DNA of 61,516 nt from Patescibacteria group bacterium (GTDB lineage Bacteria; Patescibacteriota; Patescibacteriia; JBHPGJ01), in contig JBHPGJ010000008.1 of assembly GCA_042570545.1 (NCBI GenBank), forward strand, positions 1 to 61,516. Reading direction: 5' to 3'. Shown here one piece after another: positions 16,774 to 19,740 of the stretch. How positions within the stretch are numbered: the stretch's first letter is position 1; each line of letters begins with the position of its first letter. Both the position numbers and the translations under genes were made by a program. A model generated the notes under the pieces. The model searched no databases and was not told where the DNA came from. It was given only the letters and a program-made list of their open reading frames with translations.

Positions 16774-19740
16774 TTAGCCGAGCTGGTTAATAATTTTATT
16801 TAAATCATCAAGCTGTTCTTGAGTCGCAGCTAACTTTTGGTTTTCTTGGCTTACAATTTCCTTAGGTGCTCGCTCAGCAAAGTTCTTATTACCAAGTTTG
16901 TTCTTCTGGGTGGTAATATATTTCTGTAATTTTATCAGATCAGAACGGAGATGCTTTTTGATGTCAGAAGATACTGTCCAGCCATAACTAATTCCACCGA
17001 CCGAACCAACTGATTTGATAGCATCGGGACTGACAATTTCTATCCTTGAGGCCTGGGCCAACTGTTTAATAATAGGTTGGAAATCGATTAATATTTTCCG
17101 ATACAAGCTGCTGGCCAATAACATATCAATCTTCTTATTGGCCGGTATGGCCATCAGGGCGCGGGTATTTCTTATTTTGGACACCAGATTAACAATTCGC
17201 GCGTGCTCCTTATCGGTCGGTGAGTAATTTATTTTTTCCACTTTAGGCCAATCGGAAATCATTAACAAGTTGTTATCACCAAGCTTTTCCCAGATATGCT
17301 CGGTAACAAAGGGCATAAAAGGATGTAGCAATTTGAGTGAGGTCCTTAGGGTCAAGGATATAACAGCGGAAGTATTTTTAGTCCGGCGAGCCTTGGTTTC
17401 TTCAAGATAGACATCAGCAAAATCATGCCAAATAAAATTATATATAAGCTCACCAGTTGTTCCGTAGCTGTAGTTATCCATTGCCCGAGTGACGGTTTTT
17501 ATTAATTCGTTAAGTTTATGAATGATCGATTTTTCCTCAATGGTGAGATATTTAAAATCAATTTTATTAGTTCTTGATAAATCCTGAGTCAGCATTGCGT
17601 AGCGGGCAATGTTCCAAATTTTGTTGCCGAAATTTCTATAAGCGGCAATTTTCTCTTCGTACAACCGCATATCATTTCCGGGCGAAGTACCGATTACCAA
17701 GCTTAATCTAACCGCATCAGCACTATATTTTTTGCTCATTTCGAGAGGATCAATGCCATTACCGAGAGATTTTGACATTTTACGGCCCTGCTTGTCGCGC
17801 ACTAAGCCGTGAAGATAGACTGTTTCAAATGGTATTTCGTCCATGATATAAGTGGTCATCAAGATCATCCGAGCCACCCAGAAAAATAATATATCATAAC
17901 CCGTCTCCATAACCGTGGTTGGATGAAAAGTTTTGAGATCCTTGGTCTTATCTGGCCAACCGAGTGTTGAAAAGGTCCATAAAGCAGACGAAAACCAGGT
18001 ATCAAGCACATCAGTGTCTTGTTCAAATCTCTTATGCGAACAGGCGGGACATTTGTCCGGTGGTTTGGCCCCGACAAAAACCTGACCGCAACCATTTATT
18101 TTCTTGGTTGATACGAATTTATATTTGTAAATCCAGGCCGGTGTGGTAGCAGTAATTTTTTTATCGGGATGATGACGCTTAAAAGCAGCAACAAGTTCAG
18201 TAAGTTTCTTATATGTTGCCCCGTGCTCGGGGTCAGCTAAACGAATTTTATCAATCGTTGTTTGCTCAACAGCGGTGATGGTCCCGTGTCCGATGACTGT
18301 GTTCTGCTGGCTGTTGTCAAAGGCCACAATATCACCAACGGCAAATCCATGATCACGCAGACGATAAGTCTTTGTCTTGCCAGCAAAAAGTTGTGGTAAC
18401 ACGCTTTCGTGAAAGCCCAGGCGTGGCAGACGACCAGCCTTTAAGCCGCCACAGTACCAAACGGGGATACGATGACCAAACCACAGCTGACGAGAGATGT
18501 TCCAGTCATGAAGGTTATTTAGCCAGTGAAAATAAACCTTAATAAATTGTTTAGGAATTATATTTATCTCTCCCGATTTGACTACCCGGAGAGCCTGATG
18601 CTTAAGCGATACTTTTTTATTACCGCTTTTTATGACTGGTTTTTCAACGCTGATGAACCACTGATTAGATACCAAGGGCTCGATTGGGGTATGACAACGA
18701 TAACAAATTGATAAATTATGTTTATAGTTTTCATCAATGTGGTCAACCAGCCCTTTTTGCTCAAGTTTGGATACTATTTTTACTCGTGACTCACGCGCCA
18801 ACGATCCGGCCAGTTCACCAGCCGCTGCTGTCAGCTTACCGTCCTCATCTATTATTTTTTCAATGGGTAAATTGTGTTTTTTTGCTAAATCAAAATCAAC
18901 AAAACTATGACCCGGCGTAATGGTCATAGCCCCACTGCCTTCCTGAGGATTGGCCGCTTTATCGGCAATCACCCGGGCCTTTACCTTTCCATCAATCCAT
19001 TCAACATCAAACTCTCGACCAACCAAGTGTTTATAACGTTTATCATCAGGATGTACAATTATTATCTTATCACTAAATTTTGTTTCTGGACGAGCAGTCC
19101 CGATAGTTACTGGGCCATACTTAAAATAATAAAAAGATGTAATTTGTTCTTTATATTCTACCTCATCATCGGCCAGTGTTGACTGACAGCGTGGGCACCA
19201 ATTAACAATTCGGTTGCCACGATAGATCAAGCCATCGTTATACATCTTAACAAATGTTTCCTGGACGGCCCTAGTTAGTCCTTGGTCCATAGTATATCTT
19301 TCACGCGACCAATCGCAGCTGGCTCCCAGGGCCCGAATTTGCTGTCGGATACGTGATTTGGAATCTTCGACAAAGTCTTCAACTCGTTTTTCAAAGACCT
19401 CTCGGCCAAGATCGTGCTTAGTCTGTCCTTTTTCTTTGAGCTGTTTCTCAATTACATTTTGTGTAGCAATGGCCGCATGATCGGTACCCGGTAGCCACAG
19501 CGTTTTATAGCCTCTCATCCTCGCATAGCGGGTCATAATGTCTTCAATAGCTAAAGTTACCGCGTGACCGATATGTAGCGTACCGGTGGCGTTGGGCGGA
19601 GGCATAGCAATCGAAAAAAGTTTGGTTCTTCGACCCGGTAAGTTGTCGGGATTAAAAAATCCCGAATCTTCCCATTTCTTATAAATACTTGATTCGTATT
19701 TATTTGGTTCGTATGCTTTTGGTAGGTCTTTTGGATCCAT
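16774..19740 (-). CDS. valS: Valine--tRNA ligase with an ASCH-domain insertion
   Basis: PPPNATGTLHIGH, WNISRQLWFGHRIP, DVLDTWFSS, KMSKS, C-terminal coiled coil. About 120 aa inserted at 18091-18449. Confidence 0.97.
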   Translation of the reverse strand: MDPKDLPKAYEPNKYESSIYKKWEDSGFFNPDNLPGRRTKLFSIAMPPPNATGTLHIGHAVTLAIEDIMTRYARMRGYKTLWLPGTDHAAIATQNVIEKQLKEKGQTKHDLGREVFEKRVEDFVEDSKSRIRQQIRALGASCDWSRERYTMDQGLTRAVQETFVKMYNDGLIYRGNRIVNWCPRCQSTLADDEVEYKEQITSFYYFKYGPVTIGTARPETKFSDKIIIVHPDDKRYKHLVGREFDVEWIDGKVKARVIADKAANPQEGSGAMTITPGHSFVDFDLAKKHNLPIEKIIDEDGKLTAAAGELAGSLARESRVKIVSKLEQKGLVDHIDENYKHNLSICYRCHTPIEPLVSNQWFISVEKPVIKSGNKKVSLKHQALRVVKSGEINIIPKQFIKVYFHWLNNLHDWNISRQLWFGHRIPVWYCGGLKAGRLPRLGFHESVLPQLFAGKTKTYRLRDHGFAVGDIVAFDNSQQNTVIGHGTITAVEQTTIDKIRLADPEHGATYKKLTELVAAFKRHHPDKKITATTPAWIYKYKFVSTKKINGCGQVFVGAKPPDKCPACSHKRFEQDTDVLDTWFSSALWTFSTLGWPDKTKDLKTFHPTTVMETGYDILFFWVARMILMTTYIMDEIPFETVYLHGLVRDKQGRKMSKSLGNGIDPLEMSKKYSADAVRLSLVIGTSPGNDMRLYEEKIAAYRNFGNKIWNIARYAMLTQDLSRTNKIDFKYLTIEEKSIIHKLNELIKTVTRAMDNYSYGTTGELIYNFIWHDFADVYLEETKARRTKNTSAVISLTLRTSLKLLHPFMPFVTEHIWEKLGDNNLLMISDWPKVEKINYSPTDKEHARIVNLVSKIRNTRALMAIPANKKIDMLLASSLYRKILIDFQPIIKQLAQASRIEIVSPDAIKSVGSVGGISYGWTVSSDIKKHLRSDLIKLQKYITTQKNKLGNKNFAERAPKEIVSQENQKLAATQEQLDDLNKIINQLG

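Follow-up and report, generated by a model that had tools for sequence, protein, structure and literature searches.

The valyl-tRNA synthetase (ValRS) gene of the window, that is of the complete stretch of 61,516 nucleotides that was analysed, carries an insert that encodes a complete ASCH domain, a PUA-like beta-barrel of the YqfB-like K-x-x-T-x-R type, which separates the first cysteine of the CP3 zinc knuckle from the second. The inserted module belongs to one monophyletic family that has repeatedly changed hosts among the proteins of CPR bacteria and DPANN archaea. Translation proteins in general may carry it as an optional extra; it is not a proofreading part of ValRS. A literature search yielded no description of an ASCH domain inside an aminoacyl-tRNA synthetase (aaRS) or fused to eL32, uL23, uS4 or FtsY, and a search on ValRS inserts of CPR bacteria and on ASCH domains of DPANN ribosomal proteins returned nothing relevant beyond two 2026 ASCH preprints; the ASCH-in-ValRS architecture appears to be unreported. 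The features of the gene are compiled in Table 1.

Table 1. Features of the valS gene and of its ASCH insert, with coordinates in the window
Feature	Position	Strand	Remarks
valS, valyl-tRNA synthetase	16774..19749	minus	ORF of 991 codons, from TTG
In-frame insert in the CP3 zinc knuckle, residues 434-553	18091..18450	minus	120 codons
Folded ASCH core, residues 441-548	18106..18429	minus	AF2 and Foldseek
Cys433, first zinc-knuckle cysteine	18451..18453	minus	equals T. thermophilus C417; abuts the insert
Remaining zinc ribbon, C554, then C567-P-A-C570	18040..18090	minus	equal to C420 and C438/C441
ASCH octapeptide A-G-K-T-K-T-Y-R, residues 456-463	18361..18384	minus	
Second conserved patch, D506-x-x-H509-G-A-T512-Y513	18211..18234	minus	

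The extra segment in ValRS had been noticed in a sequence-only reading of the window, and all peptides quoted there were recovered in the valS open reading frame. This frame matches the NCBIfam valS equivalog NF004349 (E=2.7e-289; 962 bits versus a cut-off of 704) in two stretches that are broken at residue 434. The start codon is likely the ATG at 19740, which specifies a protein of 988 amino acids, as in the database copy (P0002, 988 amino acids). Apart from the insert, the enzyme is an ordinary ValRS with the HIGH motif at residue 59, the KMSKS motif at residue 657, a CP1 domain, an anticodon-binding domain (Pfam Anticodon_1) and a C-terminal arm (Val_tRNA-synt_C), and the top fold match of its AF2 model is the T. 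thermophilus ValRS (1GAX_A, E=1.3e-63). A search with Rfam at gathering thresholds detected six tRNAs, none of which adjoins valS. With respect to genome annotation, insert-bearing ValRS genes of this type should be regarded as complete and functional-looking genes and not as chimeric assemblies.

The insert stands where the T. thermophilus enzyme has two residues between C417 and C420. The span 18091-18449 that had been assigned to it earlier is right at its start but ends one base too early, as the codon boundary is at 18450. The distance between the PxWY and DTWFSS motifs amounts to 150 residues in the window's ValRS, compared with a median of 33 in the 120 closest ValRS proteins; the median is 53 in a second ValRS clade (the P0009 clade, 118 relatives). 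Downstream of the insert, a Pfam search detected a rubredoxin-like match at residues 554-574 (28.5 bits).

The ASCH assignment relies on fold and orthologues. The AF2 model of the insert (pLDDT 95.5, pTM 0.85) is a PUA-like beta-barrel of about 100-110 residues, with a core that follows the order beta1, alpha1, beta2, beta3, long beta4, alpha2 and beta5; the same secondary structure is found in the model of the full-length ValRS, with pLDDT values of 79-89. The best Foldseek match of the insert in the PDB is YqfB (9kyf_A, E=1.4e-6, probability 1.00, TM 0.77/0.81), and ranks 1-18 are occupied entirely by ASCH-family or closely related PUA-like domains, including YqfB, EF3133, the L. crispatus ASCH protein, ZmASCH, AF2351 and an E. 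faecalis activating signal cointegrator. An HMM search of the insert against the Pfam ASCH family PF04266, which the sequence-only reading had proposed as a check, counting a missing match as a refutation, gave no match even at E<=1, so that this check, read literally, went against the assignment; membership is therefore deduced from the orthologues and the fold. Six of the 16 orthologous inserts do match PF04266 at E<=1 (best E=1.9e-6), and copies of the module score 43.4 (P0031), 30.7 (P0284), 29.6 (L004) and 26.7 bits (P0023) with a gathering cut-off of 21.2 bits. Additionally, a search with the insert profile collected 170 proteins, and the stand-alone ones of 105-115 amino acids that were tested pass Pfam ASCH. 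Taken together, the insert is an ASCH domain, as had been proposed.

Direct sequence searches with the window's insert in Pfam, NCBIfam and the PDB (phmmer) returned no ASCH match, nor did a PDB search with the profile of 16 insert sequences. The alignment of the insert profile with the single YqfB sequence by hhalign was insignificant (probability 0.9%) and served only to define the residue register, which was confirmed by MAFFT. Two further matches were dismissed: a beta-hairpin of the insert resembles the phage endosialidase beta-barrel PF12195 (24.5 bits versus a cut-off of 35), which was read as local strand similarity, and weak PADLOC matches of the window's module to AbiEi (17.9 bits, E=4e-4), absent from the homologues P0020 and P0022, were considered spurious.

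The ASCH signature of the G-K-T-x-T-x-R type named in the sequence-only reading is present as AGKTKTYR. It conforms to the G-x-K-x-x-[ET]-x-R octapeptide that follows helix 1, with the glycine one position later than in the canonical motif. Across 56 module sequences only K458, T461 and R463 are fully invariant, and these residues align with K21, T24 and R26 of YqfB, whose alanine mutants are inactive (PMC6972931); the YqfB clade has seven invariant residues. In the second conserved patch, H509 (96% conserved in the 56 sequences) aligns with H70 of YqfB. The downstream Glu that had been taken to complete a Lys/Thr/Glu triad did not hold up: E508 is unconserved, its position being mostly occupied by Ala, Lys, Thr or Ser in the homologues (Ala 32%, Lys 21%), and the proposed general acid E74 of YqfB aligns with T512, a position that is Thr in 77% of the sequences and never acidic among the residues listed. 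The E74A mutation lowers the kcat of YqfB on ac4C about 1000-fold (PMC6972931). The counterpart of Y89, the position before P528, varies between N, H and Y in the 56 sequences, and D27 has no clear counterpart, as D466, although 96% conserved, lies two to three residues beyond it in the alignment. With E74 replaced, Y89 variable and D27 without a clear equivalent, the module cannot be called a simple YqfB orthologue; it may be slow, use another acid, possibly D506 or D466, or bind only.

The module is a stable in-frame fusion, as had been suggested, and is under purifying selection. For L020/L021, the only pair in which dS is not saturated, omega is about 0.10 for the module (dN/dS 0.115/1.10) and the same for the host gene (0.106/1.29), and in seven other pairs the dN of the module is lower than that of the host. 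An intein or mobile-element origin was rejected: Pfam detected no Hint or intein domain in the window's ValRS, neither terminal repeats nor a GC anomaly was found, and the insert has an ASCH fold. Cys...His-Asn/Cys splice junctions are likewise missing; the first residues of the insert are Gly-Gly, and its last, next to Cys554, are Ile-Asn-Gly.

Fifteen other ValRS proteins in a set of 5.8 billion proteins share the insert at 46-60% identity. Among species-representative genomes, the module is present in 23, in 20 of them within ValRS and in three as an eL32 fusion; four of the 23 loci come from Saccharibacteria MAGs. Its frequency among close ValRS relatives is about 3% (4 of 120, and 4 of 118 in the P0009 clade). 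The nearest relative, P0168 (74% identity), carries a histidine phosphatase at the same site, and the next one, P0169 (69% identity), is devoid of an insert. Since close relatives lack the module, ValRS is able to work without it. The known hosts comprise the CP3 region of ValRS, a second ValRS loop after STLGWP, DPANN eL32, which is encoded in a normal archaeal ribosomal-protein operon, uL23, uS4 and FtsY; NUDIX and histidine-phosphatase domains are further partners, and a stand-alone form exists. Examples with the module in the second ValRS loop are L012 and P0284. ValRS is the only aaRS among the strong matches of the module search. In the phylogenetic tree, the module family is separated from stand-alone ASCH proteins with support of 99/96, the hosts are intermixed, and the well-supported branches force at least eight host changes. 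The same CP3 site of ValRS relatives also holds histidine-phosphatase inserts, of an RHGET and a VHGTT type, and a second, GKER-type ASCH-like domain. These data identify the CP3 zinc knuckle of Patescibacteria ValRS as a hot spot for insertions, with two ASCH types and histidine phosphatases.

With roughly even confidence, we favour the view that the module is an accessory unit, tethered to translation proteins, with a pocket for modified cytidine and probably with N4-acyl amidohydrolase activity, and that it stands outside the aminoacylation and proofreading mechanism of ValRS. The invariant Lys-Thr-Arg pocket would bind a flipped-out cytosine-type base, as YqfB does, and would most likely hydrolyse its N4-acyl group in the manner of an ac4C-type amidohydrolase, or at least recognise a base of this kind. 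RNA passing the host protein would be the substrate, namely tRNA on ValRS and rRNA or tRNA on the ribosome, and grafting onto abundant translation proteins would place the accessory activity where RNA is handled. The frequent pairing with histidine phosphatases points to a cassette that processes RNA or nucleotides in two steps. Against the favoured view, bacterial tRNA-Val is not known to contain ac4C. The only bacterial ac4C site named in a preprint on ASCH proteins is C34 of elongator tRNA-Met. In favour of the view, all 19 ASCH proteins tested, of the GKTR and the GKER type, were reported to remove ac4C from tRNA (2026 preprint, 10.64898/2026.02.27.708502); against it, EOLA1 and YqfB were argued to act on free ac4C and not on structured RNA (second 2026 preprint, 10.64898/2026.08.01.741249). 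ASCH proteins have only just been proposed as tRNA ac4C erasers, and their physiological substrate, free nucleoside or RNA, is disputed. An ASCH domain that is covalently part of a tRNA-holding enzyme, and in ultra-small bacteria and archaea also of ribosomal proteins and FtsY, represents a set of natural tethering experiments; the tethering argues that the place of action of this ASCH branch, at least, is on or next to the RNA of the translation apparatus, and tRNA-Val on ValRS offers a defined substrate for testing the action of ASCH on RNA.

The sequence-only reading had proposed an in-cis tRNA-binding, de-acylating or editing module. As a ValRS-specific editing or de-acylating part, the module would, for instance, clear Thr-tRNA(Val) and compensate for a weakened CP1 site. 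The CP1 motif of the window's ValRS is indeed non-canonical (TITPGHSFVD versus KITPAHD), and CP3 is part of the connective-peptide region that sits above the catalytic core (PMC7191050). However, the TxTPxHS variant is a trait of the clade and occurs in 34 of 107 module-less relatives, and the canonical KxTPxHDxxD motif is retained in 21 of 34 module-bearing ValRS proteins and in all 118 relatives of the P0009 clade, so that compensation for a degenerate CP1 site was rejected, the variant being unrelated to the module. Editing of this kind is further contradicted by the rarity of the module among close ValRS relatives, by the known target of ASCH chemistry, which is the N4 amide of cytosine and not the aminoacyl ester (PMC6972931), and by the occurrence of the same module on eL32, uL23, uS4, FtsY, NUDIX and histidine-phosphatase proteins; overall, it is very improbable. 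Compensation for a lost C-terminal tRNA-binding arm was likewise rejected, as the members of the P0009 clade are all armless, with or without the module; the ValRS of the window has both arm and module. A better candidate, albeit still unlikely, is a non-catalytic RNA-binding or reader domain that adds tRNA or RNA surface and holds a base in the K-T-R pocket without chemistry. It would be consistent with the basic module, the missing acid E74 and the RNA-binding or RNA-associated nature of every identified host; moreover, many domains appended to aaRSs serve in this way, and ASCH/PUA-like domains such as that of TRIP4 bind nucleic acids according to the ASCH literature. What speaks for catalysis instead is that the residues without any variation are precisely the trio needed for catalysis in YqfB, that the module shows no link to arm loss, and that ac4C removal was reported for every ASCH protein tested (10.64898/2026.02.27.708502).

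A salvage enzyme that deacylates free ac4C or a similar nucleoside, fused to abundant proteins for gene economy without RNA targeting, is improbable. CPR and DPANN organisms rely on salvage, RNA turnover releases ac4C, YqfB and EOLA1 prefer the free nucleoside (PMC6972931; 10.64898/2026.08.01.741249), and the module is repeatedly found next to hydrolases of the nucleotide type (NUDIX, histidine phosphatase) and at varied sites in unrelated hosts; yet the identified hosts are all associated with translation or RNA instead of being arbitrary abundant proteins, ValRS is the sole aaRS among the strong matches, and the GKER-type domain at the same ValRS site suggests that position matters. We give hardly any credence to a selfish or neutral passenger, i.e. 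an intein-like or mobile in-frame element in a permissive loop that serves no cellular function: its sporadic distribution, the repeated host hopping and the acceptance of other inserts by the CP3 loop would fit, but no Hint, intein or nuclease domain, terminal repeats or GC anomaly was found, omega equals that of the host at about 0.1 with module dN below host dN, and an active-site-like triad is invariant over 56 sequences from two domains of life. The favoured accessory pocket for modified cytidine might be extended, as a speculation that we consider doubtful, to a mobile ASCH module that is shared by CPR bacteria and DPANN archaea, often together with histidine-phosphatase or NUDIX partners, and grafted on the translation hardware for on-site RNA de-modification or repair, for example N4-acyl removal from cytidines combined with end-dephosphorylation by the partner. 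Such a module might protect against toxins that modify RNA, or adjust ac4C-type marks in organisms with minimal genomes. In this scenario, the CP3 loop of ValRS would serve as a docking slot dedicated to such modules, at which two ASCH types and two histidine-phosphatase types would have been acquired independently.

The closest known system is the stand-alone N4-acetylcytidine amidohydrolase YqfB of E. coli (1TE7, 9KYF/9KYH), the best fold match, which has a similar size (around 105 amino acids) and shares the K-x-x-T-x-R motif and the histidine H70. Identity is only about 20%, without a direct sequence match, and the module differs in the replacement of E74 by Thr, the variability at the Y89 position and the shifted first Gly of its octapeptide xGKTKTYR. 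YqfB is free-standing with a pI of 4.7, whereas the module is nested in another enzyme with a pI of 9.6; YqfB was also reported to lack RNA binding (10.64898/2026.08.01.741249). The basic pI of the module (family median 9.0) is weak evidence for an RNA-related role, as the ValRS without the insert is also basic (9.2) and one module copy has a pI of 4.05. PUA-like barrel and octapeptide are common to the module and the ASCH superfamily PF04266 (TRIP4/ASC-1, EOLA1, TthASCH, ZmASCH), for which the literature describes fusions to HTH, PWI, Zn-cluster RNA-binding, AlkB-type, S1-like, HAD and NAT10-like acetyltransferase domains and operon links to TmcA/NAT10, restriction-modification systems and endoRNases. 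The finding adds a case in which CPR bacteria and DPANN archaea have exchanged a single domain family.

Class Ia synthetases also have other accessory domains, either inserted or appended, such as the CP1 editing domain, the leucine-specific domain of LeuRS, the GNAT fusion of IleRS (NF040702) and the Zn-binding CP3. Nesting of a domain in a connective-peptide loop is a feature shared with the module, and the CP3 subdomain of IleRS varies between enzymes in topology and zinc content (PMC7191050). In contrast to these accessory domains, the module has no homology to the known editing domains, is sporadic and not clade-defining, and occupies a site that is also taken by histidine-phosphatase and GKER-type ASCH-like inserts.

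The valS reading frame matched the NCBIfam equivalog NF004349 (2.7e-289) in two stretches with a break at residue 434, and it specifies a valyl-tRNA synthetase (ValRS) with the HIGH motif at residue 59, the KMSKS motif at residue 657 and, according to Pfam, an anticodon-binding domain and the C-terminal tRNA-binding arm. All peptides quoted in the sequence-only reading were found in this minus-strand frame, and the insert lies where that reading had placed it (18091-18449), except that the codon boundary is one base beyond the proposed end. A full-length AlphaFold model (mean pLDDT 82) yielded the structure of T. 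thermophilus ValRS with tRNA(Val) as top fold match (1GAX_A, E=1.3e-63). In an alignment to this structure, C433 corresponds to C417 and C567/C570 to C438/C441 of the T. thermophilus enzyme, and C554, directly after the insert, stands in place of C420. Accordingly, the insert replaces two residues within the first C-x2-C of the CP3 zinc ribbon, in agreement with a rubredoxin-like Pfam match at residues 554-574. In class Ia enzymes CP3 is a variable subdomain and connects the second half of the Rossmann fold with CP2 (PMC7191050). The ATG at 19740, three codons downstream of the TTG at 19749 that opens the reading frame, is the likelier start, and the copy of this ValRS in the database (P0002, 988 aa) begins there. 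In Rfam searches at gathering thresholds, the region upstream of valS (19750-19995) matched neither a T-box nor any other family; six tRNA genes, all on the minus strand, were identified in the whole window (23053, 38199, 38532, 38613, 42244 and 43170).

Positions of valS, the ASCH insert, its residues equivalent to E. coli YqfB, and related fusions and inserts
Feature	Position	Strand	Description
valS	16774..19749	minus	991-codon ORF from TTG
ASCH insert	18091..18450	minus	residues 434-553, 120 residues
YqfB K21 equivalent	K458		100% conserved in module family
YqfB T24 equivalent	T461		100% conserved in module family
YqfB R26 equivalent	R463		100% conserved in module family
YqfB H70 equivalent	H509		96% conserved in module family
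YqfB E74 equivalent	T512		Thr in 77% of module family
YqfB Y89 equivalent	position before P528		N, H or Y in module family
eL32-ASCH fusion, L004	3623-4348
eL32-ASCH fusion, L007	1901-2752
eL32-ASCH fusion, L017	3581-4342
Second-type CP3 insert, P0206	residues ~434-588
Second-type CP3 insert, P0031	residues ~455-570
Second-type CP3 insert, P0265

The insert is a genuine ASCH domain of the YqfB-like motif type, nested in the CP3 zinc knuckle. Searches of the window insert against Pfam, NCBIfam and PDB sequences gave no ASCH match, nor did a PDB search with a 16-sequence insert profile, and the sole outcome was that a beta-hairpin matched the phage endosialidase barrel below threshold. Taken literally, the refuting outcome named in the sequence-only reading, no ASCH hit, thus applies to the window sequence alone, but three independent lines establish ASCH membership: fold, orthologues and profile reach. 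The insert alignment folded at pLDDT 95.5, and the best PDB fold match was the E. coli ac4C amidohydrolase YqfB (9kyf_A; E=1.4e-6, prob 1.00, TM 0.77/0.81), followed by EF3133, Lactobacillus ASCH, ZmASCH, AF2351 and others, the best 18 matches being ASCH-family or closely related PUA-like domains. Six of 16 orthologous inserts matched PF04266 on their own (best 1.9e-6), and module copies in the proteins P0031, P0284 and P0023 and at locus L004 scored 43.4, 30.7, 26.7 and 29.6 bits, respectively, at a gathering cut-off of 21.2 bits. When 1.84 billion representatives were searched exhaustively with the profile, 170 proteins were returned, the weaker of which are mostly stand-alone, 105-115 aa long and matched over their full length. 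Eight hits that do not belong to the close module family were sampled, and seven of these passed Pfam ASCH, five being stand-alone. The more distant hits also include ASCH relatives of the stand-alone type with a fusion partner, RNase H in P0045 and a NYN nuclease domain in P0063, which add RNA-processing contexts for this ASCH branch.

The residue register between the insert and YqfB, whose sequence was confirmed against 1TE7 and 9KYF, was the same with MAFFT and hhalign. Among 56 non-identical module copies only K458, T461 and R463 never vary, indicating that the core pocket is strictly kept. The YqfB mutants K21A, T24A and R26A are inactive, whereas H70A causes an approximately tenfold loss and E74A a drop of about 1000-fold in kcat on ac4C (PMC6972931); in ac4C-bound YqfB the acetyl group occupies the K21/T24/R26 pocket with the ribose pointing outward (10.64898/2026.08.01.741249). 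In contrast to this pocket, the proposed acid E74 of YqfB is mostly replaced by Thr in the module and Y89 is not kept. The downstream Glu named in the sequence-only reading, E508, is not conserved: most homologues have Ala, Lys, Thr or Ser at this position. Other conserved residues, namely D506 (98%), D466 (96%) and Y513 (98%), are candidates for other roles.

The stretch from PxWY to DTWFSS comprises 150 residues in the window ValRS, compared with a median of 33 in its 120 closest ValRS relatives and of 53 in a second ValRS clade. An insert-only search detected 15 other ValRS proteins with the insert (46-60% identity), and scanning prokaryotic genomes, one for each species, located the module at 23 loci, a lower bound because only the exact pattern TYRLRDH[GFN][FL] was used. 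The module is optional: it occurs in four of the 120 closest relatives and in four of 118 relatives of P0009, a member of the second clade, so that ValRS evidently works without it. In P0168, which is the nearest relative (74% identity in the C-terminal half), a histidine phosphatase occupies the site of the insert, and the next one, P0169 (69%), has a 29-residue loop without insert.

Within ValRS the module usually occupies CP3, and in at least six proteins (P0016, L010, L012, L016, L022 and P0284) it resides at a second site, after STLGWP and before (F/Y)(H/Y)PT. Beyond ValRS it belongs to a mobile family that is joined to translation proteins of CPR and DPANN, with non-ValRS copies scoring 139-166 bits with the A2 insert profile in hmmsearch versus 97.9-177.5 bits for ValRS copies. 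In DPANN archaea it is located at the C-terminus of ribosomal protein eL32 (L004, L007, L017 and P0030; Pfam L32e) and of a uS4-like protein with an S4 domain (P0027), and at the N-terminus of uL23 (P0023) and of the SRP receptor FtsY (P0019). Additional copies are fused to a NUDIX domain (P0018) or a histidine phosphatase (P0020) or stand alone (P0022). The eL32 fusion at locus L004, in archaeon GW2011_AR5, is situated in the standard operon eS4-uL5-...-uL6-[eL32-ASCH]-uL18-uS5-uL30 and hence represents a genuine ribosomal-protein gene. In a maximum-likelihood tree the family as a whole stood apart from stand-alone ASCH proteins (99/96 support), with intermixed hosts, at least eight changes of the ValRS site 1 (CP3) label forced by well-supported branches, at least three origins of the second site, and the eL32 copies as one group. 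Since the tree is based on 108 columns and many forks are unresolved, it is read only qualitatively, as showing that the domain was repeatedly transferred from one host protein to another and between CPR and DPANN. Two Patescibacteria-type ValRS proteins with module carry other labels, L018 (CAYHIM010000034.1, 'uncultured Gammaproteobacteria') and P0287 ('Candidatus Pacearchaeota archaeon', 73% identical to P0009), reflecting either contaminated bins or movement of ValRS itself between CPR and DPANN.

With respect to function, a cytosine-type base most likely flips out into the Lys-Thr-Arg pocket, which probably hydrolyses an N4-acyl group, in agreement with a report of ac4C removal from tRNA by each of 19 ASCH proteins tested (10.64898/2026.02.27.708502). 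Tethering would bring this activity to the RNA handled by the host protein. We regard this function as evenly poised, mostly because E74 is missing and bacterial tRNA-Val is not known to carry ac4C. A pure RNA-binding or reader role is distinctly less probable; the module is basic (pI 9.6 in the window, family median 9.0) in comparison with YqfB (pI 4.7), which is weak evidence since the ValRS body is basic as well (pI 9.2). A salvage enzyme for free nucleosides that is carried by abundant proteins appears unlikely.

An in-cis editing module, one of the roles proposed in the sequence-only reading, is highly improbable. The window ValRS indeed carries TITPGHSFVD in CP1 (18895-19115) instead of the canonical KITPAHD, but TxTPxHS is present in 34 of 107 module-less relatives and is thus a clade trait unrelated to the insert. 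Moreover, canonical KxTPxHDxxD is kept in 21 of 34 module-bearing ValRS proteins and in 116 of 118 relatives from the P0009 clade, module carriers included. The presence of the module therefore does not track a weakened CP1 site, and a role in compensating for such a site was rejected. Likewise, compensation for loss of the C-terminal tRNA-binding arm found no support: the arm is missing in many module-bearing ValRS proteins and in all their module-less relatives, and the window ValRS has both. The least probable alternative is a selfish or neutral insert. As had been noted from the sequence, no intein features were found, and the insert flanks showed neither repeats nor a compositional break. 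The module is under purifying selection and not decaying: in the sole pair with unsaturated dS (L020/L021) dN/dS was 0.115/1.10 for the module and 0.106/1.29 for the remainder of valS, and in seven more divergent pairs the module dN (0.18-0.26) was below that of the host (0.34-0.59). ASCH is a known family with an emerging biochemistry, and literature searches revealed no paper on ASCH within an aminoacyl-tRNA synthetase, or on eL32, uL23, uS4 or FtsY. ASCH-ValRS provides a natural and defined RNA-tethered setting in which ASCH domain function can be tested.

In Patescibacteria ValRS, CP3 is a loop in which insertions are concentrated, a hot spot. Histidine phosphatases (PF00300) of two sequence types, 'RHGET' and 'VHGTT', occupy CP3 in many relatives (P0168, P0224, P0241, P0246, P0247 and others), some in tandem with the ASCH module; the phosphatase follows the module in L005, L009, L018 and L021, and in P0016 and apparently L010 it resides in CP3 with the module at the second site. 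A different CP3 insert of ~130 aa with the motif G-x-K-x-x-E-x-R (GKKNIETR, GSKTVELR) was detected in P0206, in P0031, there in tandem with the module, and in P0265, there after a phosphatase. The Pfam ASCH score was marginal for P0031 (21.3 bits versus the cut-off of 21.2) and 15.1 bits for P0206, with no match for P0265, so that a GKER-type ASCH domain is likely, not proven. If this identity is correct, one ValRS loop would be the point of convergence for two lineages of ASCH and two types of phosphatase.
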